Shown here: positions 3,451 through 43,673 of the stretch, piece by piece | Position numbering within the stretch: the first letter of the stretch is position 1 | How the letters are laid out: each line of letters starts with the position of its first letter | Assembly (NCBI RefSeq): GCF_053078305.1 | Contig: NZ_CP166879.1 | Direction: 5' to 3' (one strand) | Length of the DNA: 64,000 bases | Program-made: the position numbers and the translations under genes | Notes under the pieces: generated by a model | Databases searched by the model: none | Seen by the model: the letters and a program-made list of their open reading frames with translations, nothing else | Told to the model about the DNA's origin: nothing

Positions 3451-4391
3451 TTGAATACCTTCGCATCACTAAATGCTTTACGACAATGCATAACTCGTTG
3501 CTGATCCACGCCAGCGAAATCATTTAACATATTCCCCAAATAGGGCTTATTACTTATTTCAAGGAAAGCTACCGAGGTTGGCATATTCAGAAATGTATCG
3601 AGAGATTCAGTCCATTTCACCGTATGAGTTAAGTGTAATGAGAGATTTTCTTTGATAATTGACGGAGCGACCTCGCTTTTTGCTGTTACGTTCATCAGAA
3701 CCTGATGCTCTGGCGAAGCGATATCCAGTCCGGCAAGATAATCGCGCATTGCCTGAACGCCGTCTTCCATCAAACGCGTGTGCCAGGCACCGCTCACACC
3801 GAGTTTAACCGGTTCGTATCCAGCGGCCATCAGCAGCGTGGCAAATTCATTCAACGCAGCCTGCGTTCCCCCAATAACCTGCTGGCGCGGCGTGTTATCA
3901 CAGCTAATATCCAGCGCAATGCCTGATTCCGTAATCATCGTCTGCAGTTGTTCGCGGTTGATGCCTTTAACCGCCAGCATTGCGCCTTTATTTCTCTGGC
4001 TTTCGTCATGCATCAGGCTGGCTCTGAAGTGAATCATGCCAAATAGCGTCTCAAGAGAAATAGCTCCGGCAGCGTAGAGCGCACTGTATTCACCAACGCT
4101 GTGTCCGCAGGACCCCACAACCGTTAAATTCTCAAGACGTTCACGGCACAGGGTATAGAGCGTTACATTAATTGCGGTCACCGCCAGTTGTTGTACCGTC
4201 GTTTGAATAAGGCGATTCATCGGCCCTTTCTGACACAGGCGACGCAGGTTCAGTCCGGAAATATCGCTGGCACAATCCCAGATATGTTTTGTACTGGCGT
4301 TGAGATCCCAAAGATCGCTGCCCATGCCAATAACCGGATTACCCTGACCGGCAAAAAGCAGTACTGTCGGTTGTGAAGCATTATTCATCAT
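3447..4391 (-). CDS. FabD-like malonyl-CoA:ACP transacylase (314 aa), intact counterpart of the K-12 ymdE fragment
   Basis: Acyltransferase GHSxG nucleophile motif (GHSVGE) and N-terminal FAGQG motif typical of FabD. Confidence 0.75.
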
Positions 4392-4401
4392 CTCTTTATC
4401 C

Positions 4402-5790
4402 TTATAGATAGTATTTAAAGCCCAAATAAAGGCCTAACGTGTCGCCAAAAAGCGAAAATTCAGAATACCGACTTCCCAGCGCGCTATAGCCACCGGCATA
4501 GGCTTCAAGCTGGTTACTGATAGCGCTGAGCGGCGTGGAATAATGCAGGCCCAGCAACGTGCTGCCATCAATGAGATTGACCACCAGCGAAGGCTGCAGC
4601 GTCGACTCTCCCGCCAGCGGCAGACTGGCCCAGGCGTTCAGATAGTGCTTACCCTGCAGCATCCCCTGATTGGCGGTATTGCTGATTTCTGAAGCCATCA
4701 GGTATTTGTAAGAATCAAATGCCTGATCCAGTGGCGCATAGCCGGTTGTGGTATTGAGGAAGTCAATTAACTCGCGCTGCTGACGCTGTTCAGCGCGCGA
4801 ATAACCCTCGCTCTGAAAGTAATACTCAACGCCAAACACGCTGAAATTATCACTGGTGTACTGCCCACCCAGCGCCAGCTCCACGCCGCTTTCATCTTTC
4901 GTTTCATAGAGCGAATCCGGAAACTGATATTCCTCGACCTGCGCCGTCTCATGGTGGGAAAGATGCCGCCATTGTTGGGAGCGGTGGTAGGCTGCGTCGA
5001 CATTCAGCGTCAGCTGCGGGGTGTAGTGATAACTGTCAGACAGCGCGAGTGACGGCGATGGTCCGAGCCGCACATTGACTGTCGGTGTGTGCTCACCAAA
5101 GCGATGATCGCTGTAGCTCAGCAGATAGGCTTCGTCGCTGTTTCCCTGCTGATTAGCAGACCAGTTGCCAGACGTCACATAGCGTTTGTCGATGGTGGCT
5201 AACTTCGGTATGACGCTCGCCGAAAACGCATAATCGCGTGTATCCAAGTTCATTTTTGCGCCCCACGATGACGCCTGATACGCCGATGTCATTTTGGGAT
5301 CGTGCAAACGTGTCGACTGGAATCCGGTGTAATAATGCGTTTGCAAATCAGAAGGTGAACGCAAAAAGAACATTCCTGACGGCGCGGCAAATTTGCCTGC
5401 TTCAAATTGAACGCTGTCCGAGGCGCTATAGACCAGACTGAGGCGGTTAATTAACGCACGTGTGCGGCTATCATCCGTTTCGAATTTCCCTGCGGGTTTA
5501 AGCGCATATTCGTTTATTCCATACAGATTGAGCTTAAGTTCCAGCGTATTGTCGATTATCGAACAACCGCTGTTGATGCCAATCCCCGCCTCCTGATAAC
5601 CGTTGTGACGTGTGTAGGGATTTTTGCCTGCAATCTGCCAGGCCGAAGCCTGTTTATTGACATAAGACACTTGCTCGTAAAGCGTCACATCGCTGTTTTG
5701 TGCCACCTCGTCACCTGACAGGCAATCCGCCTGTAGCGTCAACGGCAGCGCAACACACAGCAACGAAGAGATCTTCAGCCTGCGTTTCAT
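4402..5790 (-). CDS. Secreted protein, putative outer-membrane beta-barrel (462 aa)
   Basis: N-terminal signal peptide (MKRRLKISSLLCVALPLTLQA), Tyr/Gly/Ser-rich with alternating hydrophobic pattern, aromatic-rich C-terminus; stop overlaps next gene start. Confidence 0.4.
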   Translation of the reverse strand: MKRRLKISSLLCVALPLTLQADCLSGDEVAQNSDVTLYEQVSYVNKQASAWQIAGKNPYTRHNGYQEAGIGINSGCSIIDNTLELKLNLYGINEYALKPAGKFETDDSRTRALINRLSLVYSASDSVQFEAGKFAAPSGMFFLRSPSDLQTHYYTGFQSTRLHDPKMTSAYQASSWGAKMNLDTRDYAFSASVIPKLATIDKRYVTSGNWSANQQGNSDEAYLLSYSDHRFGEHTPTVNVRLGPSPSLALSDSYHYTPQLTLNVDAAYHRSQQWRHLSHHETAQVEEYQFPDSLYETKDESGVELALGGQYTSDNFSVFGVEYYFQSEGYSRAEQRQQRELIDFLNTTTGYAPLDQAFDSYKYLMASEISNTANQGMLQGKHYLNAWASLPLAGESTLQPSLVVNLIDGSTLLGLHYSTPLSAISNQLEAYAGGYSALGSRYSEFSLFGDTLGLYLGFKYYL

Positions 5791-6575
5791 TTCGCACCTC
5801 GCTGAATATACTCTTTGGTGAAATGAAACTCCGGCAGCGATTCCAGACGAACATCGCTGTACTCCATCACTGAATAGTTATTGCCGTGACGAACATCGGT
5901 AACGGTTATTTTCATGGGTCGCGTTTTCCCCAGCACCGGCTGGAAATCCTGATACAACACTTCTTTTATTAACTGGTCATCCTGCGAGTAATAGGCTGCC
6001 TTCCACGGGCGATTATCACCGTCTTTTTCAACGTAATAGATGACCTTCGGCCAGGTGATATCCGCCGATTTACGCACCAGCGCCAGCTTGTAACACTGCT
6101 TTTCAGCACACGTGACTTCCCCCACCAGGGTCGAGTCATAGGCATATTCAAAGTTAGTGACAATGACATCGCCGTTAGAGATTTGCCCAATTAATCTTTG
6201 TTGCCGTGAAATAGGCATAGGACGTCGCAGTTCCGGCGTGTAAAACCATAAATCGTACCAGTCGGAAAGCATGATTTTTCCTTTATCTCGCGGCGGATAA
6301 ATAAAACGCACCAGCGAGCGTGCATCCGCTTTTTCATTACCCTGCGGTTTCATAAAGCGCATGGAAATATCGAGGACCTGTTTATTCTCTGGCTGGGTTA
6401 CGCCCGCTTTATATTCCGTTACCGTCAGCGTGTAACGAAACGGTTTATTCGGCGAACGAATTTCGTCAGCGCGACGAATTATCTCCAGCGCCTTATTATC
6501 TGTGCTCGCCGCCTGAACGCACGACGTAGCGAGCCACAGGCAAGCAAACCACTTGCCGTAAAAAGCCATATTCAT
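5787..6575 (-). CDS. Periplasmic LolA-like lipid/lipoprotein carrier family protein (262 aa)
   Basis: Signal peptide followed by a soluble domain; placement between FtsX permease and OMP as in Lol-like modules; family assignment by composition and context only. Confidence 0.4.
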   Translation of the reverse strand: MNMAFYGKWFACLWLATSCVQAASTDNKALEIIRRADEIRSPNKPFRYTLTVTEYKAGVTQPENKQVLDISMRFMKPQGNEKADARSLVRFIYPPRDKGKIMLSDWYDLWFYTPELRRPMPISRQQRLIGQISNGDVIVTNFEYAYDSTLVGEVTCAEKQCYKLALVRKSADITWPKVIYYVEKDGDNRPWKAAYYSQDDQLIKEVLYQDFQPVLGKTRPMKITVTDVRHGNNYSVMEYSDVRLESLPEFHFTKEYIQRGAK

Positions 6576-6583
6576 AATTAGCC

Positions 6584-7894
6584 CTATGAGAATTTAAATG
6601 CGTCAGAAATATTCAACCGGGAAGCACGTAAAGCCGGTAACACAGAGGCGCCTGTTGCTGTCAAAATGGGTAATACCACCGTCACCCAAATCAATTCCGG
6701 GTTACTGGTTTTTATAAAGGCGGTATAGCCGATGGTTTGTCCCGGCGATGGCGGCATCGCAATACCATAAAGATTAATAATCCAGGCTAACACGCCCCCC
6801 ACCAGCAGGCTGCCGACTGCGCCAATCACACCAATAAAAATGCCTTCTGTCAGAAACAAGCGCGTGACGTGAAGCGGCTTCAGGCCTATGGCACGCAGAG
6901 TGGTAATTTCACGGGTGCGCTCAACAATGTTCATTGCCATCGAGTTGCCGATCATGAAGATGACAATCAGCGCAACAATCAGCTTGATGAAGAAATAGAT
7001 CCCCGATAGCAACCCTTCAACCTGTTGATAAAAGAGTGAAACATCACGCCAGTCTTTGACCACCAGCGGCAAATGATTGCGTTCGATAAATTGACGCAGC
7101 TTTGCGCTAAACGCCGCGGTGTCATCTTCTTTAAGCAGAATAAGCACTTTGCTGACGCCATCCGTACCCATCATGCGCTGCGCGGTGTCCAGCGGGATCT
7201 TCATCGCGACATCGTCATAATCTTTAATGCCTGACTCAAAAATGCCACGCAGTTTTAGCGACAATGCGCCCTGCCCGCCCGCCGTGTTGACCACCATCAC
7301 ATCCAGCCAGTCGTCGTATTTCGCATTCAACGTTTTCGCCAGGCCGCTGCCCAGGGTGATTTCATCACCTTTTACCCGGGAAAGGTCGCTCCCCGCGATA
7401 ATCTTATCGAACGATCCCAGCTTTAAAGCGGGCAATGGCTCGACACCCAGCGCAGAGAAATAGCTGGAGGTTTCGCTCTCGTAATGTGAAATTACGCCAG
7501 TAAACTCCAGTTGCCCGGAGAGCGTGGAAATATCCGTCGCCAGCGTCGGGTCCGACAAAATAGCTTTCTTTAACGCCGCATAATCGGCAATCAGGCTCTT
7601 ATTTTTATTCGACGTTTCAAAATAGTGCTGATTGTAAATCTGCACATGACCAATATTGGTACGAATCGTCTGCTCTTTCAGGATCCAGAAAGAGTAATCA
7701 ATAAATCCGCCATATAAAAAGATCGCCACACCACCCAATACAATAGCGGTTATGGTAGAAAAAGAGCGACGCTTGTGGCGAAAGAGATTCAAAAATGCAA
7801 ATTTGACATCTCGTGAATAAAACAGAACCTGATAAAACACAAAAAACAGGATCAGCAGCAGAACGCTATTAACAGCTAAAATTTCCCCGGACAT
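6584..7894 (-). CDS. ABC transporter permease, FtsX/MacB/LolC-like (436 aa)
   Basis: N-terminal TM helix, large periplasmic domain, C-terminal 3-TM FtsX-like domain (…IVERTREITTLRAIGLKP…). Confidence 0.7.
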   Translation of the reverse strand: MSGEILAVNSVLLLILFFVFYQVLFYSRDVKFAFLNLFRHKRRSFSTITAIVLGGVAIFLYGGFIDYSFWILKEQTIRTNIGHVQIYNQHYFETSNKNKSLIADYAALKKAILSDPTLATDISTLSGQLEFTGVISHYESETSSYFSALGVEPLPALKLGSFDKIIAGSDLSRVKGDEITLGSGLAKTLNAKYDDWLDVMVVNTAGGQGALSLKLRGIFESGIKDYDDVAMKIPLDTAQRMMGTDGVSKVLILLKEDDTAAFSAKLRQFIERNHLPLVVKDWRDVSLFYQQVEGLLSGIYFFIKLIVALIVIFMIGNSMAMNIVERTREITTLRAIGLKPLHVTRLFLTEGIFIGVIGAVGSLLVGGVLAWIINLYGIAMPPSPGQTIGYTAFIKTSNPELIWVTVVLPILTATGASVLPALRASRLNISDAFKFS

Positions 7895-8551
7895 TTACTC
7901 ACCTTTCATCAGCGGCAGCAGTACCTGGGTTAACTCTTCACTATCCCATTCTGGTACAACATTAAAATCCTGCGTCAGCGACTGCGCAAGCGCGGCGTTT
8001 TGCCCTTTAATTTGCGCCAACAACGCATTCGCGTGGGTGGTGTCCTTGCAGTGACGTAATGCGCGATAACGCATCGCCAGAATATGGTCGCGGATCGTTG
8101 TCGCCCATATCGCCGGGTCAGCCAGCATGTGTTCGGTGTCTTTGACTGTCACCACGCAACGCCCTGAATCTGCCGGTAAATAGGCATCTACGCGGGCGCG
8201 TAAATAGCGTACGCGTTGATTTTTCTCCTGCAAATCCACCGCTTCATCCAGCCAGAAAAAGCCGCTTTTGGCGTATTCTGAGGCATGGATAAAATCGTTT
8301 GTTGCCGCATAACCGTCCGCCTGACGCAGTAAGCCATAGGCGTAAAAAACCAGCGCCACCACATTGTGCCTGGCTTCATACTCTTTCTTTAACGCTTCGG
8401 TCAGCGTCGCCAGCGCGGCAGGCTGCGCCGGAAGCCCTTGTTGCAGAACCTGGTTAACGGCGTCGGGAGTTGCCGCGTAAATCTTCGGGGCCAAAAACGC
8501 CGCGTACAAAAAGACGCCGATAAGCAAAAATCCTTTATGCATCTGAGTCAT
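7895..8551 (-). CDS. Signal-peptide-bearing periplasmic protein of unknown function (218 aa)
   Basis: ORF with cleavable N-terminal signal peptide, Ala/Leu-rich helical composition; sits between the ABC ATPase and permease genes. Confidence 0.4.
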   Translation of the reverse strand: MTQMHKGFLLIGVFLYAAFLAPKIYAATPDAVNQVLQQGLPAQPAALATLTEALKKEYEARHNVVALVFYAYGLLRQADGYAATNDFIHASEYAKSGFFWLDEAVDLQEKNQRVRYLRARVDAYLPADSGRCVVTVKDTEHMLADPAIWATTIRDHILAMRYRALRHCKDTTHANALLAQIKGQNAALAQSLTQDFNVVPEWDSEELTQVLLPLMKGE

Positions 8552-9242
8552 GAATCAATACTCCATCCTGAATTTCAACCACTCGCCGCGCCCGCGCTTT
8601 TAATTCGCTGGAGTGCGTGGAAATAACAAATGTGGTGCCTGTCTGCTGATTAATCGTCAACAGCAGGTCCAAAATAGCCTCGCCGGTTGCCAGGTCTAAA
8701 TTTCCCGTCGGTTCATCGGCAATGACCACCATCGGTTCGTGGGCCAGTGCCCGGGCGATGGCGACACGCTGTTGTTGACCGCCCGATAATTGCCCAGGTT
8801 TGCGATCGCCAAAACCGCTTAATCCAACACTATCGAGATAATGCAGCGTCCGTTCAGTGGCTTCTTTTTTACTGAACTGACCATTAAGCACCAGTGGGAA
8901 ATAAACGTTATCGAAAACATTTAATACCGGCATAAGGTTAAAAAACTGAAAAATAAAACCCAAATGTTTTCCACGAATCACAGCCAACTGCTCTTCTGGC
9001 AGTTGGTTCAGTAATTTATTTAAAAATATCACCGTTCCGCTGGTCGGTTTATCAATACCCGAGAGAATATTCAACAGAGTACTTTTACCACTGCCTGACG
9101 GCCCACACAGTGCGAGAAATTCGCCTTTATTGATATCAAGATTAATGCTTTTAAGCGCATCAACCTTTCCTGCCCCAGCGCCATAACACTTATAAATATT
9201 GCTAAGCGAAATAGCGGGCAACGATTTAATAGTAGATTGCAT
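8535..9242 (-). CDS. ABC transporter ATP-binding protein (about 235 aa; start set at MQSTIKSL, ORF track extends to 9329)
   Basis: Walker A GPSGSGKST, ABC signature LSGGQQQRVAIARAL, Walker B VVIADEPT. Confidence 0.8.
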   Translation of the reverse strand: MQSTIKSLPAISLSNIYKCYGAGAGKVDALKSINLDINKGEFLALCGPSGSGKSTLLNILSGIDKPTSGTVIFLNKLLNQLPEEQLAVIRGKHLGFIFQFFNLMPVLNVFDNVYFPLVLNGQFSKKEATERTLHYLDSVGLSGFGDRKPGQLSGGQQQRVAIARALAHEPMVVIADEPTGNLDLATGEAILDLLLTINQQTGTTFVISTHSSELKARARRVVEIQDGVLIHDSDA

Positions 9243-9252
9243 ACGACTGTCG

Positions 9253-10206
9253 TTATCCTTCAAGGTATTCAAGGTCAAAGTAGTGATAACCAAACTGTTT
9301 ATCAGCAATGACCGTACGCATTTTTCCACCGGGCTGAATATGACGGGTTAAATAATCCATACTCAACGCGGGCGTCAGACAACCGCTTTCACCGTAATGG
9401 GCCACCAGGTCGATAACGCCAGCAGCAGGCCGGGACGGCATTTGTTGCCGTTCGCTGAAGGCCATGACATCAATATCCGTAGCATGCTGTGGCGCAGTGC
9501 CGGAATGATATTCCCCGCATTGCAGCCTGATGGCGCTCTCACGCTGGCTGAGAATAAAACAACCCACGCGTTCAACAGATAAATTCACCTCATCAGCGCG
9601 ACGGGGGAATAAACGCTTAGGCGGTTTACCCACATCCTCTTCAGAGAATACCAGTACCGGAATTGCCCGATAGGCAGCGCAAATCACCACGTTATCGAAT
9701 ACATCCCAGGCGAGATAATCCTGCGCCATACGCAGCGCCTGAACGAATGCCTGTTTTTCGCCGCGAATCTTGCAAGTCGGTTCCGTTATCGAAAACTTCT
9801 TAAGTAAATTCTTGGGAAGCGTATCAATAGTGGCGATATGCAGCGCACTGGAAATTTTTTCAAACGAACCGGATTCGCCCCAGGAATCGGCATAAATAAA
9901 TGCCGTGCGCGATTTCATTAACTTCATGCGCTCTTTAGTCGGCATTTGTTGTAATGCAGAATCGGTTACCTGCTCCATCGCCTCAAGGTAAGGCATATAT
10001 TGTGGATTACGGATCCGTTCCGGCGCATAAATATCGTTCTCAACGCCAAAGCGCTTCAGCCCCCAGCCATTAGCACGGGTGCCGTATAATCCCCTTTCGT
10101 ACATATGTGCTTCCCAGGCGTTGAGCCAGGTCGGCTGATAAAAATAAAAAATGTCGTCCGGTTCCGTAAGCGCCCAGGAAGACAGGTAGATACTCTTTTC
10201 CGTCAT
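9253..10206 (-). CDS. Hypothetical protein (317 aa) within the lipid biosynthesis cluster
   Basis: ORF tightly packed between the KS-like gene and the ABC ATPase gene; no motif I can assign confidently. Confidence 0.4.
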   Translation of the reverse strand: MTEKSIYLSSWALTEPDDIFYFYQPTWLNAWEAHMYERGLYGTRANGWGLKRFGVENDIYAPERIRNPQYMPYLEAMEQVTDSALQQMPTKERMKLMKSRTAFIYADSWGESGSFEKISSALHIATIDTLPKNLLKKFSITEPTCKIRGEKQAFVQALRMAQDYLAWDVFDNVVICAAYRAIPVLVFSEEDVGKPPKRLFPRRADEVNLSVERVGCFILSQRESAIRLQCGEYHSGTAPQHATDIDVMAFSERQQMPSRPAAGVIDLVAHYGESGCLTPALSMDYLTRHIQPGGKMRTVIADKQFGYHYFDLEYLEG

Positions 10207-28787: not shown

Positions 28788-30122
28788 ATGTCTAAATCGA
28801 CTTTTTTACACATTCTGATTAGCTCCATCATATTGGTGGCACTAATACAATCATCCGCCTGGGCCACTTGTTCTAATACACGCGTCGGACAAACGGAGGA
28901 CGGAAGATCGGCACTCATTGAGTTCGGAAAAATTAACCTGACCGACACCTATTTTGCGCCAGTAGGCTCACTACTCGCGACAACGGTCGTACCTTCCACT
29001 AACTACACATCAGGTGGCGCGTCAGGAAGCTCCGTACTGTGGGAATGTGACGCAACAGATTTGCCAAACATCTATTTTCTGGTCGCAACCAATGGCGACG
29101 ACCGCGTGGGTGGCTTTCACAATGCAGGCGGGCCTGATGGTCTGAGTGATGTCTATGCCACCTGGTTTGCTTTTGTCGGTCTCAAGCAGACTATGGCGGG
29201 CGTGACGATTGGTCGTTACTGGAAAAAAGTGCCCATCACCAGTTATGCCACTCAGGGAACTAAAATCCAGATCCGCTTACAGGATATCCCTCCTCTTCAT
29301 GCTGAGCTTTACCGTATTAGTACGCTGCCTGATACCGCTGGCGCAACCAGTTACTGCGGTAATACCAATACTGATGGCGACGGTGTGGGGTATGCGAAAC
29401 CCTCCGGCACACCTTATAACTGCACTCAGCCTAATGCCTATATTCAGCTTTCCGGTACCAGTGGTATTCCATTTGCTCATGATGAAGTGGGCGAGGACAG
29501 TGCGGATCACTATGATTTTTGGGGTGCTGATAATGGTTTTGGTTACGGAATGCGTTCGGCCAATCGACTCTACAACAATGCCACCTGCGTTGCCCGCAGC
29601 GCCACGCCGTTAGTATTGCTGCCGACAATTGCAGAAGCACAACTGAATGCGGGCATGGAAAGTACCGGTAATTTTAATGTCCGCGTCGAGTGTAGTAACT
29701 CAGTTCAATCAGGGATTAGTGATACTCAGACAGCATTAGGAATCCAGGTATCTGAAGGTGCATATACAGCAGCGCAAAAACTGGGGATTATCAATAGCAA
29801 CGGCGGAGTCAGCGCCTTAGTCTCAGATAATTATGACGCGGCAGAGATGGCAAAAGGCGTTGGGATCTACATCTCAAACAGTGCTTACCCCGATACGGCG
29901 ATGACGCTGGTTGGTCAACCGGGCATCGCGAAGTTAACCCCCGGAGGAAATGCAGCGGGGTGGTATCCTGTATTTGAAGGGGCAACATTAGAAGGTGCGA
30001 CTCACCCCGGATACTCCAGCTATAGTTACTCTTTTATCGCCCGGTTGAAGAAACTGCCAAATCAGACAGTCAGTGCGGGAAAAGTGCGGGCAACGGCGTA
30101 TATATTGGTGAAAATGCAATGA
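28788..30122 (+). CDS. Putative fimbrial tip adhesin, two-domain (444 aa)
   Basis: Signal peptide, large Cys-containing N-terminal domain plus C-terminal pilin-like domain; position after the usher gene. Confidence 0.5.
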   Translation: MSKSTFLHILISSIILVALIQSSAWATCSNTRVGQTEDGRSALIEFGKINLTDTYFAPVGSLLATTVVPSTNYTSGGASGSSVLWECDATDLPNIYFLVATNGDDRVGGFHNAGGPDGLSDVYATWFAFVGLKQTMAGVTIGRYWKKVPITSYATQGTKIQIRLQDIPPLHAELYRISTLPDTAGATSYCGNTNTDGDGVGYAKPSGTPYNCTQPNAYIQLSGTSGIPFAHDEVGEDSADHYDFWGADNGFGYGMRSANRLYNNATCVARSATPLVLLPTIAEAQLNAGMESTGNFNVRVECSNSVQSGISDTQTALGIQVSEGAYTAAQKLGIINSNGGVSALVSDNYDAAEMAKGVGIYISNSAYPDTAMTLVGQPGIAKLTPGGNAAGWYPVFEGATLEGATHPGYSSYSYSFIARLKKLPNQTVSAGKVRATAYILVKMQ

Positions 30123-30808
30123 AATCCGTTTTGCTGCTCTTAACCGTCTTGTTCGTACAGTCAGTGGAAGCCGGCATCATGCCGGCTTCTTCACGGATTA
30201 TTTATCGCGATGGCGATCGGGAAAAGACGCTGATGTTGGTCAATACCAATGACTACCCGGTACTGGTGCAAAGTTGGGTAGATAATGGTGAAGGCTCCCC
30301 AGAAGCTGCTTCTCCTCCCTTTGTGGTGCTGCCACCGGTTTTCCGCCTGGTAGCGAAACGAACCCAGGGATTACGGATTATCTATAATCATGACCCACTT
30401 CCCCAGGATCGCGAATCTGCATTCTGGTTAAATCTTTATGAAATGCCGCCAGAAACTCCCCATCAAGATCCCACACATTTAACGCTGGCAATGAATACGC
30501 AACTTAAAATCTTTTACAGGCCAAAATCTGTAACTATGACGCCCCAAGAAGCTATGCGTAAAATAAGTTGGCATCTGGGTAACGACGGCAGCAGTAGCTA
30601 TATTGAGCTTAATAACCCAACACCACTGAATATCTCTTTCACCTCCATCAGCATTGGGGCTACAAAGGTGCAGCAAGAAAGCGATATGATGATAAAACCC
30701 TTCAGTCAACGACGGTACTGGTTAGCAAGTAATAACGTTAGTGGTGTGGTTGCGGCGACATATCTCGATGATAATGGTGCACAGATAAAACAACAATTAG
30801 CGCAATAA
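30119..30808 (+). CDS. Second periplasmic fimbrial chaperone, PapD-like (229 aa)
   Basis: PapD-family motifs (RIIYRDGDREKTLMLVN, FWLNL, LKIFYRP); start overlaps the adhesin gene stop. Confidence 0.75.
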   Translation: MKSVLLLLTVLFVQSVEAGIMPASSRIIYRDGDREKTLMLVNTNDYPVLVQSWVDNGEGSPEAASPPFVVLPPVFRLVAKRTQGLRIIYNHDPLPQDRESAFWLNLYEMPPETPHQDPTHLTLAMNTQLKIFYRPKSVTMTPQEAMRKISWHLGNDGSSSYIELNNPTPLNISFTSISIGATKVQQESDMMIKPFSQRRYWLASNNVSGVVAATYLDDNGAQIKQQLAQ

Positions 30809-30953
30809 TGCTCTGAGTGGTATGTAAACTCATCGCGATGGTTCAACGCTAACGAATAACCACTATACCCACCTGGAGTACCGGAAGTGGAGAAATGACA
30901 AAATCTCTCCACTCCATTTTCCAGTCAAAACACCTCAACGCAGCCAAAAATCG

Positions 30954-31745
30954 TTAACGAATTGAATATCCACCATCAATGACTAATAGTTGTCCATTGA
31001 CATAATCTGAAGCGGCACTGGCGAGGAACACCATTGCGCCCATAAGATCCTGTGCCCTTCCCCAGCGTTGAGCCGGTATACGCCCTTTTATTAACTCTTT
31101 TATTTTAGGGTTATTATAAATAATAGCGGTCATTTCACTCACATAATATCCTGGGGCGATACCATTAATCTGAATATTATATTCCGCAAAATCATCGGCA
31201 TACGCTTTGGTCAGCCCCGCTAAAGCATGTTTAGTCGCCGCATACCCTGGCGACCAACGTCCCCCATGAAATGACAATACGGAACACATATTAATAACTT
31301 TCCCTTTTCTTTGCGGGACAAATATATTCAATGCGGCCTGGCTCATATCGAATGCAGCATTCAGGTTGAGATTAATCATCGGATCCCAGTCGTTTCGATT
31401 GAAATCGATAGGACGATTAATGTTACACACGCCCGCGTTATTGACCAGAATATCTAACTGACCGAAACGCTCCAGACACCTATTAATAATGGTGCATGCT
31501 GCATCAGGTTTTGTTATGTCTATTGTCATAAACTCAACTTCAACGCCTTCATGAGTTAAATGCTTTAAATATTTATTATCAGGCTCTTTGATGTCTACCA
31601 ACAACAGATTAGCTCCTGCTTTGGCCAGAGCAGAGCATAAGCCTCTCCCCAGTTCACCCGCGGCCCCAGTTACGATGGCCACCTTGTTATGTAAAGAAAA
31701 AAAATCCAATGAAAAATCTTCAATAGAAAAGCTCATATCACACAT
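30954..31745 (-). CDS. Short-chain dehydrogenase/reductase, KduD/FabG-like (263 aa)
   Basis: TGAAGELGRG Rossmann motif, NNAG, and Tyr/Lys catalytic pair (YAATK). Confidence 0.7.
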   Translation of the reverse strand: MCDMSFSIEDFSLDFFSLHNKVAIVTGAAGELGRGLCSALAKAGANLLLVDIKEPDNKYLKHLTHEGVEVEFMTIDITKPDAACTIINRCLERFGQLDILVNNAGVCNINRPIDFNRNDWDPMINLNLNAAFDMSQAALNIFVPQRKGKVINMCSVLSFHGGRWSPGYAATKHALAGLTKAYADDFAEYNIQINGIAPGYYVSEMTAIIYNNPKIKELIKGRIPAQRWGRAQDLMGAMVFLASAASDYVNGQLLVIDGGYSIR

Positions 31746-32423
31746 TGCTCCTTATGAGTAAGTAATATTTAAGGTGTAATTTAAGTAATTTTTAGATTTC
31801 AATAAAAAACTAAACGTATAAAACTCAGCATGAATAATAAACATCAAATCTTATATATTTTTAAGTAGTGATGCATCACGTAAAAAATATAGTCATCATA
31901 GATGTTATGCAGTACGCACAAAAAAAACAGGCTGGAATTGCTTGCTGATTTATAATCTTTATCTAAATTACTATTGGCGCTTTGGATAATAACATAAGCA
32001 TATATTACCTCCTAGCAATAATAGAGATAACCTCATATCAAGGTGTCACTGGTAAATAATCGGATAAAAGACAGTATCGGTCGGCGCATAGAGCTTCTTC
32101 TATTTCACCAGAAGTGCACAGCAGGAACTACCAATCACACGGTTAGTGTCATGGGTGGAGGATGCGGCCCGTTCTTTCCCTATAACAGGGTTACGCAGTT
32201 TCAATCAGTACATGCAGAAAAACCCCTAATTCACATCACTGCAGAAAGCATTTAATAGAAATATACATCGTTTAAGAATTTCAATTAAATCAAGATTATT
32301 CTTAAAAATCAGATAATTCACATTTGCATTTTTAGGAAATTATACTATAGTGCACTTAATGTTCTTGCCTTTATTTTCTGAGTAATACTGGATTTGTAAT
32401 ACACAACTAAGGTATAAAATGTA

Positions 32424-33236
32424 ATGATCTACATTATAAATGATGAAGTAAGATTCAACTCATCATCTAATAAGTTAACATCACTCCTTACATCAGAGGA
32501 AGTGATACTCACTTATCCTGCGGGAAAATGCTTAAAGTTACTTTTAGATAACGCTTATAGTGTCGTGTCACACAATCAATTCTTTGAAAAAGTCTGGAGC
32601 GATAGCAGTGCCGAAGTCGCAACCAACACTTTATATCAAAATATATCGATGATAAGACGTTCTTTTCGTGAAATCAGCTCAGCGACGATATTTAATGATG
32701 TTATCAGAACGGTGCCCCGTAAAGGCTTCAAAATCAATGAAGAAATCAGCATAACTGTTCTCGACAATAATCACAATGAGAATGAAAGTGTTGAGAGTGA
32801 AGAGAATGGTACCCACACTGAAAATATAAATAAAAATCACATTGCAAAAGGTATATTTACCACAAAGAATACATTGCTTATAGTTTGTTTTTTTGCGGCA
32901 TGGGGGATAGTGTATATATCTTCTTATTTTTTCGATATGGCTTTTCAAAGCAAATCCCACACTATAAAAAAAATAGATGCTTTCTCAAATTATGCTCAAC
33001 ACCCTACTCAGGAAGGATGCAGTTATTTCTATGATAATAAATACTTTAATTCCGTAGACATGTTATCACCGATTATTGAAAAATTGCAGAAGATGGAAAT
33101 TAACTGCAAAATACATCCTTACATTTACATTGCAACAAATGATAGCATGAGCGGATTTTATGCTTTCACCTGTAGTCAGATGTTAAACTCTGAATCACCA
33201 AATAATTGCAACTCTCTCTATTATAAAGCGGAGTAA
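32424..33236 (+). CDS. ToxR/CadC-like membrane-anchored transcriptional regulator (270 aa)
   Basis: N-terminal OmpR/PhoB-type winged-helix segment (…FEKVWSDSSAEVATNTLYQNISMIRR…TVPRKGFKI), one TM helix (LLIVCFFAAWGIVYISSYFF), periplasmic C-terminus; AT-rich. Confidence 0.6.
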   Translation: MIYIINDEVRFNSSSNKLTSLLTSEEVILTYPAGKCLKLLLDNAYSVVSHNQFFEKVWSDSSAEVATNTLYQNISMIRRSFREISSATIFNDVIRTVPRKGFKINEEISITVLDNNHNENESVESEENGTHTENINKNHIAKGIFTTKNTLLIVCFFAAWGIVYISSYFFDMAFQSKSHTIKKIDAFSNYAQHPTQEGCSYFYDNKYFNSVDMLSPIIEKLQKMEINCKIHPYIYIATNDSMSGFYAFTCSQMLNSESPNNCNSLYYKAE

Positions 33237-33240
33237 TCAT

Positions 33241-33732
33241 ATGACTCAAAGATATTTTCTGTTTGCGGGAATAATTTTATGTGCTTTTATTGCAGCAATT
33301 CTGAGCCATATTGCGTTTCATCATGCCAATGAACCAGCAGAGCAAAACATATCATGTAATGCCCATGTTATTAATTTCACCGATCATACAAAAATGGATC
33401 AATATTTTTCGTTAAATATGATTTCTGAAAATAACACAGGAAACATGTATCTCACGGGCGCATACACGGTAGATGGAAAAAAGATGGGCTTCATCCGCCG
33501 ATATGTGAGTTTTACATACAAGAAATTCCGTGATACCGTTTACTTCACCACTGTTAAAATACAAAAAATACAAAAAGATGATAACATTAGTGATGAAATC
33601 CTTGAAAATATCACTTCTGATTTTTTCATAAAAGTAGACACCTCAATTAATTTTTATGTTACACGTCAAAATGATTACAACTACGTATTCTCTACAGGCA
33701 GGACACCACGCTTCATATGTATTTCCCACTAA
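33241..33732 (+). CDS. Small membrane-anchored periplasmic protein, possible ToxS-like partner (163 aa)
   Basis: Single N-terminal TM helix then soluble domain; start 5 nt after the ToxR-like gene stop. Confidence 0.4.
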   Translation: MTQRYFLFAGIILCAFIAAILSHIAFHHANEPAEQNISCNAHVINFTDHTKMDQYFSLNMISENNTGNMYLTGAYTVDGKKMGFIRRYVSFTYKKFRDTVYFTTVKIQKIQKDDNISDEILENITSDFFIKVDTSINFYVTRQNDYNYVFSTGRTPRFICISH

Positions 33733-33833
33733 CAGCATTGTTGCTTCTGGCGTTTGTCACCAGTTAATAACCTTCTGATGGCTTTGTTTATATTTTAAGG
33801 CAATAAAAAACCATTCCAATATTGGTTAATTAT

Positions 33834-35444
33834 TTATCTGTTTACATACCATTGATAAAACTCTGTCGCTTTCATTGGTTTTGCATATAAGTATCCCTGA
33901 ACTAATGTCACGTTATTATGAATAAGATATTCCGCCTGGTGAGGAGTACTGACACCTTCTGCAATCGTTATCAAATTGAGTCGATTACTCAGCTTAATAA
34001 TAATATCTAAAACTGGCGTTTCGTCTTCCGCTGTAGTGAGTGTGTCTATAAAGCTTTTATCTATTTTAAGATAATCAACAGACAACTTTTGCAGAAGGCC
34101 AAGGGAACAATATCCCGTGCCAAAATCATCAACTGCAAATTCACAGCCATGGATCCTTAATTCATTTATTTTCTGTAATGCAAGATCAGTATCTTCAACC
34201 AGATTGCGTTCGGTAATCTCAAGAACAATGTTAAATTTATCAGATATTTCATTTTTAATATGTAAAACATCAGCAACAAAATCAGGATGTGCAAGATGCT
34301 CCGCGGCAATATTTATCCCAAGGTGAAACGGCTTTTTCACTTTCCAGCTTTGTACATCCTGAATAATCAGTTCAAAGAGATGCTTAGTTAACGGTATAAT
34401 TAAATTTTCCTCTTCTGCAGCGCGGATAAAAACTACCGGAGATATATTTTTACCATCTTCGCGTTGCCAACGCATTAACGCCTCAACCCCCAGACACGCT
34501 TTGGTTGTCGTGTCACATACTGGTTGATAATGCACAGAAAATTCTCCGGATGACATTCCTTTCTTAATTTCTTCTGCCAGGGACATTTTCCGAGATATCC
34601 AGCGCTGCCATAAGAAGTACAGAATAAAAGAAAGAAGAATAGATAATGGAAGAATGTAAAATACATTACTAATGACATAGGGATATAATGAAATCATCGG
34701 CGTAGTAACTGTAAGACTAGCCTGACTGATCGCAGAATTAAAATCTTTTTTTAACATATATAACTTGTCATTATTATTTACACCACTAATAATTGCAGGC
34801 CCTTCAGTAAAGCTAAGAGAAAATGAATCATCATTCTCATCATCAAGAACATCCATCAGATCATAGATATATCGTGACTCTACAATACTAAAAGCTGTCA
34901 TATCATTCCCTATTGGCATAAGGAACACTATGGCTGTTTTACCTGGTACAAAACTTGTACCGCTAATTGATACTATGCGTGATTCTTTATTTTTATTGTG
35001 AAAGCTCGTACCGTAAACATCGTTAACATTCATTTTTTTGAAACCGCTAACTGAAGAACATATTTGGAAATTATTTTCTATAAGCCCCGTTGTTCGAACA
35101 TAGGGGGTCAATGCTCCGTTAGCAATCAATTGTTCCAGGATATCTTTGCAGGGTTTCATCACCAGAATAGAAGTAAGCTTTGTCGTATGTTTTACAATTT
35201 GCGTAACATTATCAAGCTGTTTTAACAGAATACCGGCGGTAATTGTCGTATCTCGATTCATTTGAAATACTGACATAGCAAACGACAGTAACACCCCCAG
35301 AATGCCTGGTATTATAATGAGTACAAACATTTTTTTGTTGAATACCATACATGTTTCCCCACGCATCAGGGTGATGCAACCTAAGAAATTATAGTACAAT
35401 TGCCAGTAAAAGCGGGTGATAGCAGACTGATCAATGATAAGCAT
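33834..35444 (-). CDS. Membrane-bound EAL-domain c-di-GMP phosphodiesterase with periplasmic sensor domain (up to 536 aa; start possibly at 35348)
   Basis: Two TM segments flanking a periplasmic domain; cytoplasmic EAL domain with EALMRWQ and downstream DDFGTGYCSL motifs. Gene symbol left blank because equivalence to the O157 vmpA gene is only from memory. Confidence 0.75.
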   Translation of the reverse strand: MLIIDQSAITRFYWQLYYNFLGCITLMRGETCMVFNKKMFVLIIIPGILGVLLSFAMSVFQMNRDTTITAGILLKQLDNVTQIVKHTTKLTSILVMKPCKDILEQLIANGALTPYVRTTGLIENNFQICSSVSGFKKMNVNDVYGTSFHNKNKESRIVSISGTSFVPGKTAIVFLMPIGNDMTAFSIVESRYIYDLMDVLDDENDDSFSLSFTEGPAIISGVNNNDKLYMLKKDFNSAISQASLTVTTPMISLYPYVISNVFYILPLSILLSFILYFLWQRWISRKMSLAEEIKKGMSSGEFSVHYQPVCDTTTKACLGVEALMRWQREDGKNISPVVFIRAAEEENLIIPLTKHLFELIIQDVQSWKVKKPFHLGINIAAEHLAHPDFVADVLHIKNEISDKFNIVLEITERNLVEDTDLALQKINELRIHGCEFAVDDFGTGYCSLGLLQKLSVDYLKIDKSFIDTLTTAEDETPVLDIIIKLSNRLNLITIAEGVSTPHQAEYLIHNNVTLVQGYLYAKPMKATEFYQWYVNR

Positions 35445-35541
35445 TTAAGATCATATAGTACTATGATATTTCTGAAAATTGTTACGCATGTCTGCGAATA
35501 GCTATTTAGCGCTTACCAAAATCACCCGCTAAAATGCCGCT

Positions 35542-36900
35542 TTATGGTGACTCACAAAAATTCACCACATCCCTCACAACCACCTTATTACGCCCGGTCT
35601 CTTTCGCCTCGTATAGTGCGTTATCAGCCAGTCGATAGATCTCATTCGGGTTTAACGCATTTCCCTGAGTCACAACAGCGCCAATACTAATCGTCACTTT
35701 TTGTGGTATGGCGTATTCAGGATTATCACCAGTTAAACGCTCAACATTTTCCCGAATCCTTTCCGCTAAAGCTTTCGCACGTTCAGTATCGATGTCCGTC
35801 AGCAAGACGCCAAACTCTTCGCCGCCGACGCGCGCAAAAAGGTCATCTGGCCGTATGCTTTTCCCAATGATATTCACCACTGTTTTTATCACCTGATCGC
35901 CAATCGGATGCCCCCAGGTGTCGTTGACTTTTTTGAAGTGGTCGATATCCATAAGCATGACGCAATAAGGCGTTTTTTTGGCCGATGCTGATTGAACCGT
36001 CAGTTCATTAAAAAAATAATTTCTGTTAAATATATTGGTTAAGGGATCGCGATGTGCAATGTCCTTTGTTACTCGTAGCGCACTGAATATATGGCACATA
36101 AATATTACCATAACGGTTAACTTACTGACTACTTCAATAGTGCGACTAATATACCAAATGGACACGCTATACCTGCTCATAAATAAAAGAGAGACATTGT
36201 ACAGTACGGCACAAAAAGCAATCACCGTCACTCCATTCCAGATATCATAGCGTAAACCATTAAAGTATAGATTAACCGAAAGCAAGGTTAACCACATGAA
36301 AATCATTATGGTAACATATGAAGCTTTCCAAACCACTTGACCATTTTCATTGGTTAACTCGGCAATGTGTAAATCGTAGCTCTCATAATGGCTAGAAAGT
36401 ATGTGAGCAACTATCGGCCCCCCAAGAACAAAAAACAAACTTATGCACAAAGTCATTTTTTTGGAAAATAAATTGCGCTGTTTTGTGTTTTCACTAACTT
36501 TATTCACCAATGCCAGAAATATTAATATGCACAAACTCATCTGACGAAACAAATAATAAATTGCAATGTCATTTTGAACAACACTGCTTGTCAAACGCCC
36601 CTCAATCATTTGCTGAATGATAATGACGGTTTTAACAAAGTAAATCAAACAACTCAGAAAAGCCAAACTAAGTATACAGTTTGAAAATTGCCTACGGTCA
36701 TAAATGAAATACAACTGCATAAAAATAAATGCAACAGTATCGATAAAAAATAAAGCAATCATTACCATCAGATAGGTTGATAGTGGAACAACCTCCTCAA
36801 CGCCTGGCTGATTAAACCAACTATTCACCAAAACCAAAGCAAGCCCAAACAATAAGCTCACTAAGACAGTACTACTAATTCTCAAATAGTCTTTTTCCAT
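35542..36900 (-). CDS. dgcT: Membrane-anchored diguanylate cyclase DgcT/YcdT (452 aa; ORF track extends 41 codons upstream)
   Basis: Multi-TM N-terminal domain plus GGDEF domain (RVGGEEFGVLL); N-terminus MEKDYLRISSTVLV matches recalled YcdT; divergent from pgaA. Confidence 0.85.
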   Translation of the reverse strand: MEKDYLRISSTVLVSLLFGLALVLVNSWFNQPGVEEVVPLSTYLMVMIALFFIDTVAFIFMQLYFIYDRRQFSNCILSLAFLSCLIYFVKTVIIIQQMIEGRLTSSVVQNDIAIYYLFRQMSLCILIFLALVNKVSENTKQRNLFSKKMTLCISLFFVLGGPIVAHILSSHYESYDLHIAELTNENGQVVWKASYVTIMIFMWLTLLSVNLYFNGLRYDIWNGVTVIAFCAVLYNVSLLFMSRYSVSIWYISRTIEVVSKLTVMVIFMCHIFSALRVTKDIAHRDPLTNIFNRNYFFNELTVQSASAKKTPYCVMLMDIDHFKKVNDTWGHPIGDQVIKTVVNIIGKSIRPDDLFARVGGEEFGVLLTDIDTERAKALAERIRENVERLTGDNPEYAIPQKVTISIGAVVTQGNALNPNEIYRLADNALYEAKETGRNKVVVRDVVNFCESP

Positions 36901-37249
36901 AAAGCTACACCAACCTGTAGGTTGTAGATCCCTTTCTATTATTAATAGATATAAGAACTGTACAGTTGTCAATATGAAAACCCACTCACAAACAATACCG
37001 ATGATGATAGTTGCAGGCCGCAATTATTATTACCTTAGTGCTTTATACATTCTTTGCGACAAGACAGGCTTGCAAATATTTATAAATGGTTATAAGGAAA
37101 TCCTTATAAAACATTCATTCATAGATATATTAGGAATAACAATTGAATCCGTGAGTACAGTAACGCTGCATTTCATCAGGACTTTCGAAAAATCCGAAAT
37201 CATGCATCGGAATTTACTGATTTAATTATTTTACTCCTAATTTATTTTG

Positions 37250-37489
37250 AAAAAGGCATTGGGATTTATGCCGTATTCCTGAAGATCCTCATCATTGGAA
37301 TGGATTTTCGGGCGAGAAAAGGATTTTATATGGACACTCTGCTCATCATTTCTTCTTCTCATCATCAACAATTCACGTCTCTCTTCCGCGTTTAATAACG
37401 GATTATGAGGTGCAAAAAAATATCTTTCTTTTCAGTTACCTGTCATTAGATACAGAGAGAGATTTTGGCAATACATGGAGTAATACAGG
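37250..37489 (+). promoter_or_regulatory. pgaA 5' leader region with multiple GGA motifs (candidate CsrA-binding sites), one overlapping the SD/start (acaggatgt)
   Basis: GGA motifs read directly (cattggaatggatttt, aaaaggatttt, ataacggattatgagg, catggagtaatacaggATG); CsrA control of the pgaA leader is established for K-12. Confidence 0.5.
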
Positions 37490-39913
37490 ATGTATTCAAG
37501 TAGCAGAAAAAGGTGCCCGCAAACCAAATGGGCTTTGAAAATTCTTACTGCCGCATTTTTAGCAGCGAGTCCCGCGGCGAAGAGTGCCGTTAATAACGCC
37601 TATGATGCATTGATTATTGAAGCTCGCAAGGGAAATACTCAGCCAGTTTTGTTATGGTTTGCACAAAAATCAGCACTCAGTAATAACCAAATTGCTGACT
37701 GGTTACAGATTGCCTTATGGGCCGGGCAAGATAAACAGGTTATTACCGTTTACAACCGCTACCGTTATCAGCAATTACCAGCGCGTGGTTATGCAGCTGT
37801 CGCAGTCGCTTATCGTAACCTGCAACAATGGCAAAACTCGCTTACACTGTGGCAAAAGGCGCTCTCTCTGGAGCCGCAAAATAAGGATTATCAACGGGGA
37901 CAAATTTTAACCCTGGCAGATGCGGGTCACTATGATACTGCGCTGGTTAAACTTAAGCAGCTTAACTCTGGAGCACCGGACAAAGCCAATTTACTCGCAG
38001 AAGCCTATATCTATAAACTGGCAGGGCGTCATCAGGATGAATTACGGGCGATGACAGAGTCATTACCTGAAAATGCATCTACGCAACAATATCCCACAGA
38101 ATACGTGCAGGCATTACGTAATAATCAACTTGCTGCCGCGATTGACGATGCCAATTTAACGCCAGATATTCGCGCTGATATTCATGCCGAACTGGTCAGA
38201 CTGTCGTTTATGCCTACGCGCAGTGAAAGTGAACGTTATGCCATTGCCGATCGCGCCCTCGCCCAATACGCTGCATTAGAAATTCTGTGGCATGATAACC
38301 CTGACCGCACTGCCCAGTACCAGCGTATTCAGATCGATCATCTTGGCGCGTTATTAACTCGCGATCGTTATAAAGACGTTATTTCTCACTATCAGCGTTT
38401 AAAAAAGACGGGGCAAATTATTCCGCCCTGGGCGCAATATTGGGTTGCGTCGGCTTATCTCAAAGAACATCAGCCAAAAAAAGCACAGTCAATAATGACA
38501 GAGCTCTTTTATCACAAGGAGACCATTGCCCCGGATTTATCCGATGAAGAACTTGCGGATCTCTTTTACAGCCACCTGGAGAGTGAAAATTATCCCGGCG
38601 CGCTAACTGTCACCCAACATACCATTAATACTTCGCCGCCTTTCCTTCGGTTAATGGGCACGCCTACGAGCATCCCGAATGATACCTGGTTACAGGGGCA
38701 TTCGTTTCTCTCAACCGTAGCAAAATATAGTAATGATCTTCCTCAGGCTGAAATGACAGCCAGAGAGCTTGCTTATAACGCACCAGGAAATCAGGGACTG
38801 CGCATTGATTACGCGAGTGTGTTACAAGCCCGCGGTTGGCCTCGTGCAGCAGAAAATGAATTAAAAAAAGCAGAAGTGATCGAGCCACGTAATATTAATC
38901 TGGAGGTTGAACAAGCCTGGACAGCATTAACGTTACAAGAATGGCAGCAGGCAGCTGTCTTTACGCACGATGTTGTCGAACGTGAACCGCAATATCCTGG
39001 CGTTGTACGTTTAAAACGTGCGGTTGATGTACATAATCTTGCAGAGCTTCGTATCGCTGGCTCAACAGGAATTGATGCCGAAGGCCCGGATAGTGGTAAA
39101 CATGATGTCGACTTAACCACCATCGTTTATTCACCACCGCTAAATGATAACTGGCGCGGTTTTGCTGGATTCGGTTATGCCGATGGACAATTTAGCGAAG
39201 GAAAAGGGATTGTTCGCGACTGGCTTGCGGGTGTTGAGTGGCGGTCACGTAATATCTGGCTCGAGGCGGAGTACGCTGAACGCTTTTTCAATCATGAGCA
39301 TAAACCCGGCGCGCGCCTTTCTGGCTGGTATGATTTTAATGATAATTGGCGTATTGGTTCGCAACTGGAACGCCTCTCTCACCGCGTTCCATTACGGGCA
39401 ATGAAAAATGGTGTTACAGGCAACAGTGCTCAGGCTTATGTTCGCTGGTATCAAAATGAGCGGCGTAAGTACGGTGTCTCCTGGGCTTTCACTGATTTTT
39501 CCGACAGTAACCAGCGTCATGAAGTCTCAATTGAGGGTCAGGAACGCATCTGGTCTTCACCATATTTGATTGTCGATTTCCTACCCAGTCTGTATTACGA
39601 ACAAAATACAGAACACGATACCCCATACTACAACCCTATAAAAACGTTCGATATTGTTCCGGCATTTGAGGCAAGTCATTTGTTATGGCGAAGCTATGAA
39701 AATAGCTGGGAGCAAATCTTCAGCGCAGGTGTTGGTGCCTCCTGGCAAAAACATTATGGCACGGATGTCGTCACCCAACTCGGCTACGGGCAACGCATTA
39801 GCTGGAATGACGTGATTGATGCTGGCGCAACGCTACGCTGGGAAAAACGACCTTATGACGGTGACAGAGAACACAACTTATACGTTGAATTCGATATGAC
39901 ATTCAGATTTTAA
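37490..39913 (+). CDS. pgaA: PGA export porin PgaA (807 aa)
   Basis: Matches recalled PgaA (MYSSSRKRCP..., TPR-rich N-terminal domain, beta-barrel C-terminus). Confidence 0.9.
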   Translation: MYSSSRKRCPQTKWALKILTAAFLAASPAAKSAVNNAYDALIIEARKGNTQPVLLWFAQKSALSNNQIADWLQIALWAGQDKQVITVYNRYRYQQLPARGYAAVAVAYRNLQQWQNSLTLWQKALSLEPQNKDYQRGQILTLADAGHYDTALVKLKQLNSGAPDKANLLAEAYIYKLAGRHQDELRAMTESLPENASTQQYPTEYVQALRNNQLAAAIDDANLTPDIRADIHAELVRLSFMPTRSESERYAIADRALAQYAALEILWHDNPDRTAQYQRIQIDHLGALLTRDRYKDVISHYQRLKKTGQIIPPWAQYWVASAYLKEHQPKKAQSIMTELFYHKETIAPDLSDEELADLFYSHLESENYPGALTVTQHTINTSPPFLRLMGTPTSIPNDTWLQGHSFLSTVAKYSNDLPQAEMTARELAYNAPGNQGLRIDYASVLQARGWPRAAENELKKAEVIEPRNINLEVEQAWTALTLQEWQQAAVFTHDVVEREPQYPGVVRLKRAVDVHNLAELRIAGSTGIDAEGPDSGKHDVDLTTIVYSPPLNDNWRGFAGFGYADGQFSEGKGIVRDWLAGVEWRSRNIWLEAEYAERFFNHEHKPGARLSGWYDFNDNWRIGSQLERLSHRVPLRAMKNGVTGNSAQAYVRWYQNERRKYGVSWAFTDFSDSNQRHEVSIEGQERIWSSPYLIVDFLPSLYYEQNTEHDTPYYNPIKTFDIVPAFEASHLLWRSYENSWEQIFSAGVGASWQKHYGTDVVTQLGYGQRISWNDVIDAGATLRWEKRPYDGDREHNLYVEFDMTFRF

Positions 39914-39921
39914 GGATAAAT

Positions 39922-43258: not shown

Positions 43259-43259
43259 T

Positions 43260-43673
43260 ATGAACAATTTAATTATTACGACCCGACAATCGCCAGTACG
43301 TTTACTGGTTGATTATGTTGCCACAACCATCTTGTGGACATTATTTGCTTTGTTCATATTCTTATTCGCCATGGATCTGCTGACGGGTTATTACTGGCAA
43401 AGCGAGGCCCGAAGCCGACTTCAGTTCTATTTTTTGCTGGCAGTGGCGAATGCCGTCGTGTTAATTGTCTGGGCGCTGTACAATAAGCTGCGTTTTCAAA
43501 AACAGCAGCATCATGCAGCCTACCAATATACGCCGCAAGAATATGCAGAGAGCTTAGCAATACCTGATGAGCTCTATCAGCAACTACAAAAAAGCCACAG
43601 GATGAGCGTACACTTCACCAGCCAGGGGCAAATAAAAATGGTGGTTTCAGAAAAAGCGCTAGTCCGGGCATAA
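43260..43673 (+). CDS. pgaD: PGA synthase subunit PgaD (137 aa)
   Basis: Small two-TM protein immediately after pgaC; matches recalled PgaD. Confidence 0.85.

Follow-up and report, generated by a model that had tools for sequence, protein, structure and literature searches.

The window analyzed here is a 64,000-nucleotide stretch of an Escherichia coli chromosome (RefSeq assembly GCF_053078305.1, contig NZ_CP166879.1), and the locus under study, at positions 33834-39913, carries a gene for an EAL-domain phosphodiesterase of cyclic di-GMP (c-di-GMP) next to the diguanylate cyclase gene dgcT and to pgaA, the first gene of the pgaABCD operon for the exopolysaccharide poly-N-acetylglucosamine (PGA). 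Its sequence identifies the EAL gene as pdeT (vmpA), the c-di-GMP phosphodiesterase gene of O-island 47 (OI-47), a genomic segment previously described in E. coli O157:H7.

Identity of pdeT and its neighbors

The protein encoded by the EAL gene is identical to VmpA/PdeT (Z1528) of O157:H7 at 530 of 536 residues (98.9%) with no gaps, and the whole gene has 99.0% nucleotide identity to that of O157:H7 EDL933, with one RefSeq genome naming the matching gene pdeT. Six substitutions separate the two proteins (S211R, K227R, E399A, L421H, I431S and P501S, in 536-residue numbering with the window residue first), none of them at a catalytic or cysteine position. The gene order around pdeT is the same as in O157:H7 (Z1813), and, as in EDL933, the gene stands between grvA-fidL and dgcT-pgaABCD. 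Unlike the EDL933 gene, the one in the window belongs to a host that is not O157, and it matches the human rectal isolate ES5 best, with 99.9% identity over 30800-37500 as against 98.3% for O157:H7.

The mechanical open reading frame and the RefSeq annotation both place pdeT at 33834-35444 on the minus strand, with 536 amino acids (aa). The start codon is probably Met33 at 35348, which gives a gene at 33834..35348 (-) and a protein of 504 aa, because the alignment to the NCBIfam profile does not begin before residue 41 of the 536-aa frame, GGGGAA lies just upstream of the Met33 ATG, and the homology retained in an O145:H28 genome begins 5 nt before that ATG. Pfam matches in the 536-aa frame comprise a CSS-motif domain (PF12792, residues 63-222, E = 3.8e-13) and an EAL domain (PF00563, residues 291-523, E = 5.6e-64). 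Hydropathy along the 504-aa protein peaks at residues 1-30 and 221-248, with the two hydrophobic segments flanking the CSS domain, and the resulting layout consists of a first transmembrane segment (~7-28), a periplasmic domain, a second transmembrane segment (~225-247) and the EAL domain (~259-491). The membrane-bound, periplasmic-sensor architecture proposed in the earlier note on this DNA agrees with these matches.

The catalytic and metal-binding roles of individual EAL residues are established from structural work on such domains. In PdeT (504-aa numbering), the corresponding positions are E289-A-L, R293, N346, E377/E380, D407-D408, K428, E464 and Q484, and they align with the active EAL domain of PA3825, while the periplasmic domain holds the cysteines C67 and C97-S98-S99. 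An alignment with 16 homologues, reaching down to 34% identity, revealed that C67, C97-S-S and all of the listed EAL residues are invariant. With every catalytic residue in place and invariant, an active EAL domain is predicted, as the earlier note had assumed. The same succession of transmembrane segment, periplasmic CSS domain with two conserved cysteines, second transmembrane segment and EAL domain is found in PdeC (YjcC), PdeB, PdeD, PdeG and PdeN of K-12, though BLASTP gave only 33% identity between PdeC and PdeT, confined to the second transmembrane segment and the EAL domain, and the periplasmic domains did not align.

Directly upstream of pdeT and on the same strand lies dgcT (ycdT), at 35542..36900 (-), which encodes 452 aa from the RefSeq start and bears the name dgcT in the annotation of matching genomes. 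Its product contains MASE4 (E = 4.4e-68) and GGDEF (E = 6.2e-50) domains in Pfam, with the A-site motif GGEEF at residue 359 and an I-site, RPDD (RxxD), at 350, five residues upstream; both sites are intact, and 437 of the 452 residues are identical to K-12 DgcT (b1025). The divergent dgcT-pgaA intergenic region (36901..37489), which would hold both promoters and both 5′ leaders, is kept in most E. coli genomes, and its promoter-like matches do not outnumber those of shuffled sequence. The pgaABCD operon follows at 37490-43673 (+), with four full-length genes in order, orthologous to K-12 b1024-b1021, with zero internal stops and 97-100% identity to K-12, in agreement with the annotation of matching genomes. 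These are pgaA (37490-39913, 807 aa, with an NCBIfam PgaA score of 1446 bits against a cut-off of 1043), pgaB (39922-41940, 672 aa, 654 of 672 residues identical to K-12), pgaC (41933-43258, 441 aa, 439 of 441) and pgaD (43260-43673, 137 aa, 137 of 137), the last three of which lie beyond the interval given in the earlier note. Coordinates and domain matches thus place the EAL gene, dgcT and pgaA where the earlier note had put them, with dgcT divergent to pgaA, and chance is no issue, as all three are real genes.

Much of this arrangement has been described before. The position of pdeT/vmpA immediately downstream of ycdT/dgcT was reported in PMC4287979, and PdeT/VmpA was listed as the sixth CSS-domain phosphodiesterase, present in certain enterohemorrhagic and enteropathogenic E. 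coli (Herbst et al. 2018, PMC5897775). Hydrolysis of c-di-GMP in vitro is reported for the O157:H7 orthologue, according to PMC5897775, PMC5635171 and the Branchu et al. 2013 title, and Cimdins et al. 2017 (PMC5635171) state that the functionality of PdeT in biofilm formation was proven in EDL933. The earlier note had proposed to delete the EAL gene and to measure biofilm and motility; this experiment has largely been done already, in O157:H7, with the vmpA deletion and its measurement credited to Branchu et al. 2013 in PMC5635171, PMC4076661 and PMC5807413, of which the latter two cite increased biofilm and decreased motility in the mutant. Since the gene, the enzyme class, the knockout phenotype and the adjacency to dgcT and pga are all published, the finding of the earlier note is accurate but already known.

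On the other side of pdeT, and convergent with it, lies the pair grvA-fidL (32424..33732, +). The first gene, grvA (Z1531, 32424-33236, +), encodes a ToxR-like membrane regulator, with weak Trans_reg_C-type matches and the RefSeq label 'winged helix-turn-helix', and its FidL-like partner (33241-33732, +) is annotated as 'FidL-like protein' in RefSeq. GrvA is z1531 of OI-47 (PMC8565820), and GrvA/FidL has been described as a co-component system (PMC9214523), with the ToxR-like pair also treated in PMC10877973. An Rfam scan of the whole window gave no match within 33834-39913. It did give a match to Ysr251, a family of antisense small RNAs from Yersinia, at 43728-43921 (+), with 189 bits against a gathering score of 100; this match comes shortly after pgaD and overlaps phoH, which is encoded on the other strand, at its 3′ end.

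The OI-47 segment and its absence from K-12

A blastn comparison with K-12 and the junction sequences delimit the segment absent from K-12 to 3791..35530, and its 31,740 bp correspond closely to the published OI-47 of EDL933, which comprises 31,727 bp and z1528-z1556 with Z1528 as its first open reading frame (PMC8565820). The pdeT gene is thus the terminal gene of the OI-47-equivalent segment on the dgcT side, and the dgcT-pdeT spacer (35349..35541, in minus-strand orientation) holds the right-hand junction, with the homology of K-12 stopping at 35531, 11 nt past the dgcT stop codon. K-12 matches the window up to this point and again from ~3790 leftwards, and IS3D lies between the two in K-12. 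The IS3D flanks end with "...cattt" on one side and begin with "gtgcc..." on the other, with no target-site duplication. In addition, K-12 ymdE is a truncated 3′ remnant of a gene for ACP S-malonyltransferase, of which the window holds an intact copy (3447-4391), and an identical arrangement of IS3 and truncated gene was found in an unrelated broiler isolate.

Because IS3D replaces 31.7 kb, with non-duplicated flanks and a truncated ymdE, K-12 looks like a derived, IS3-associated deletion of OI-47 and not like the ancestral state, a reading drawn from the junctions and not from a phylogenetic reconstruction. The earlier note had held that the island adds a phosphodiesterase to the locus. It was right that pdeT lies in a segment absent from K-12, but the idea of an addition is doubtful in view of the IS3-bounded deletion and the ymdE remnant, and the situation is better phrased as most E. 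coli having lost it.

The region next to the tRNA gene serX (2194-2281) and the dgcT end of the segment show further variation. The serX 3′ end and its flank form an 80-bp unit (2263-2342) with a single occurrence in the window; K-12 has three matches to it between serX and ycdU, which may be repeated attachment-site remnants. A third allele was observed in strains of the O139:H1 P15-25 type, in which homology ends within the last ~12 dgcT codons (~35531-35579) and a gene for a tyrosine integrase comes next; judging by this junction, it is a different element integrated into the 3′ end of dgcT. Within the segment, ES5 lacks window 13049-18037, 5 kb in a ketosynthase or fatty-acid-like cluster, and is annotated with a single fused 'beta-ketoacyl synthase N-terminal-like' gene instead. 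A two-partner-secretion, filamentous-hemagglutinin-like gene at ~18974-22787 (-) is split into frames of 554 and 696 aa, and it is annotated as a 'frameshifted' pseudogene in ES5 and as an intact coding sequence in O157:H7.

Distribution of pdeT and the question of a dedicated module

Within-species counts were made over 5,426 complete E. coli genomes, among which 414 (~8%) carry pdeT, full length at ≥95% identity in 410 of them. A query that ran from pdeT through dgcT into the start of pgaA matched ~4,249 genomes, nearly all through its dgcT-pgaA part, and ~90% of the genomes matching dgcT-pgaA are without pdeT. The reverse situation was observed in O145:H28 RM12581, which lacks window 35354-37115, a precise deletion of the whole of dgcT with 215 bp upstream, so that the pgaA-dgcT intergenic region is joined to pdeT at a point 5 nt before Met33 and pdeT stands directly divergent from pgaA; pgaB is frameshifted in this genome. 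The same junction, with dgcT deleted and pdeT retained, was found in 27 of the 5,426 genomes (O145:H28 type). Hence pdeT, dgcT and pga occur independently of each other in E. coli genomes.

Reviews describe OI-47/grvA as exclusive to O157:H7, O55:H7 and O145:H28; the pdeT carriers detected here include human, chicken, pig and water isolates that are not labeled as any of these. The carriers hold at least three pdeT allele groups, with ~99.5-100%, 99.0% and 96-98% identity to the window, and a single pdeT match comes from a plasmid-classed record.

The closest PdeT homologues beyond the E. coli cluster share 51-56% identity and come from Enterobacter, Klebsiella, Citrobacter, Lelliottia and Serratia. 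Eight foreign loci were obtained from seven look-ups, and within 8 kb of the homologue none of them gave a tblastn match to DgcT, PgaA or PgaC or a Pfam match to GGDEF or pga domains. Their contexts vary, with mobile elements, a plasmid-like contig and defense genes, and some also contain fimbriae or a giant adhesin. A 55% identical homologue in Enterobacter hormaechei has both a fimbrial operon and a Trans_reg_C + FidL_like pair within 5 kb; the Citrobacter homologue follows a 2,372-aa invasin-like adhesin; and contigs of the Klebsiella oxytoca type have a fimbrial gene at a distance of ~8 kb. The E. hormaechei locus was considered as a syntenic counterpart of OI-47 and rejected, as tblastn gave no GrvA or FidL match there and its usher and chaperones reach only 31-33% identity.

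We estimate at roughly 0.8 the probability that the EAL gene is the known pdeT at the dgcT-proximal edge of OI-47 and that its adjacency to dgcT and pga comes from the history of the locus and not from a dedicated module. Several points weigh against this explanation. The genes dgcT and pdeT have a low G+C content in common (0.39 and 0.36, respectively, against 0.44-0.47 for pga), and the number of foreign loci compared is small. Co-transcription of dgcT with pdeT, which lie on the same strand with no recognizable terminator, could also fit a paired source and sink, and the accessible literature contains no experiment on PGA in a pdeT mutant, which leaves room for a PGA-specific role.

A site search found no intrinsic terminator between dgcT and pdeT (35349..35541), and the fold of the spacer contained no GC hairpin with a U tract; because no terminator-like site is present, read-through from dgcT into pdeT is possible. 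The spacer has one promoter-like match, at 35478-35450, and the region contains 17 such matches against 15.7 expected in shuffled sequence. As this is no excess, no promoter was assigned.

Synthesis of PGA by PgaCD depends on c-di-GMP, an established fact from which the earlier note had correctly started. It went on to propose DgcT as the dedicated source and PdeT as the dedicated sink of a local c-di-GMP pool, together gating PgaCD in OI-47 strains. The physical adjacency of pdeT, dgcT and pga, the common strand of dgcT and pdeT with no predicted terminator between them, and the inner-membrane location of PdeT, DgcT and PgaCD all fit this model. A pair of this kind is known from Yersinia pestis, where HmsT/HmsP serves the PGA-like polysaccharide Hms in this way. 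E. coli itself has DgcC/PdeK at the phosphoethanolamine-cellulose synthase, a membrane-bound diguanylate cyclase and a membrane-bound EAL phosphodiesterase that work as source and sink in the way proposed here (PMC7397504). However, both of these pairs have documented protein contacts and specific knockout phenotypes, whereas PdeT, DgcT and PgaCD are known here from their genes, and genomic co-occurrence argues against their being an obligate set.

Co-location and co-inheritance, by which a local module might be recognized, were not observed: pdeT occurs in 414 genomes as against ~4,249 with matches to the dgcT-pgaA segment, 27 genomes keep pdeT after the loss of dgcT, and 0 of 8 foreign loci contain a GGDEF or pga gene. 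The notion that PdeT antagonizes DgcT at a local PGA pool therefore finds no support in these comparisons. The published physiology also stands against it, with PGA synthesis by PgaABCD in K-12 credited to DgcZ (review, PMC10211494) and DgcT reported as below detection in K-12 and repressed by CsrA (PMC5635695), while a link between DgcT and PGA was only "suggested" from their divergent position (PMC4287979). Moreover, the reported motility phenotype of the vmpA mutant (PMC5807413) indicates that the enzyme is not confined to PGA. A dedicated module thus has no positive support beyond adjacency, its prior probability appears low, and we regard it as unlikely. Slightly less likely still is a more specific version, in which PdeT and DgcT would be co-transcribed and act as redox-gated sink and source at PgaCD. 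If this were true, PGA would be set by the periplasmic redox state in the ~8% of E. coli genomes retaining OI-47, and O145:H28, with pdeT replacing dgcT at the promoter divergent from pgaA, would represent a natural 'sink-only' rewiring.

It is improbable, too, that PdeT is tied to the cargo of OI-47, the chaperone-usher fimbriae and GrvA/FidL, coupling adhesin expression to motility, with its contact to dgcT being accidental. The gene is convergent with grvA-fidL and 3 kb from the fimbrial operon, adhesin or fimbrial genes accompany the homologues of E. hormaechei, Citrobacter and the Klebsiella oxytoca type, and E. coli has a fimbria-linked EAL protein in PdeY (SfaY). However, the regulators and fimbrial genes of E. 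hormaechei are not orthologous to those of OI-47, adhesin genes are missing from four of the seven foreign contexts, and no regulatory link is reported in the literature examined. Least probable of all is that pdeT contributes little here, being poorly expressed or disulfide-inactive and persisting as a neutral remnant where most E. coli have lost the segment: the deletion in most lineages, the decay of neighboring island genes such as the frameshifted two-partner-secretion gene, the low activity at which a disulfide keeps CSS-domain phosphodiesterases (PMC5897775), and an AT-rich region of a kind that is often silenced by H-NS would suit this explanation, but the reading frame is intact with all catalytic residues present, 410 of 414 carriers keep it at full length and ≥95% identity, and deletion of the O157:H7 orthologue is reported to give phenotypes.

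Proposed action of PdeT and its implications

Under the explanation favored here, a known phosphodiesterase placed beside dgcT by the history of the locus, PdeT would be an inner-membrane protein whose two transmembrane helices bracket the periplasmic CSS domain, and its cytoplasmic EAL domain would hydrolyze c-di-GMP. The lowered c-di-GMP level would favor motility and disfavor c-di-GMP-dependent matrix and biofilm functions. In PdeC and PdeB, a disulfide dependent on DsbA/DsbB lowers the activity, and the reduced form is processed by DegP/DegQ (PMC5897775). By analogy with PdeC, we infer a comparable redox control for PdeT, in which a DsbA-dependent disulfide between the two periplasmic cysteines probably holds back the enzyme, and PdeT restrained in this way would respond to the redox state of the periplasm. 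Its position beside dgcT and pgaABCD would have come from a deletion and insertion hot spot next to serX. Draining the c-di-GMP pool would then have several outputs, with any effect on PGA among them, and that effect would depend on which enzyme supplies PgaCD, the CsrA-repressed dgcT product or the separately encoded DgcZ.

If PdeT did act specifically on PGA through DgcT, this would be one further example of the known local type of c-di-GMP signaling. With the gene, its phenotypes and its context already published, little is at stake for discovery. Overall, the value of the locus is modest and of another kind: the K-12 arrangement would be an IS3-bounded deletion and not the ancestral one, and the natural variants that keep pdeT and have lost dgcT could serve as ready-made test strains.

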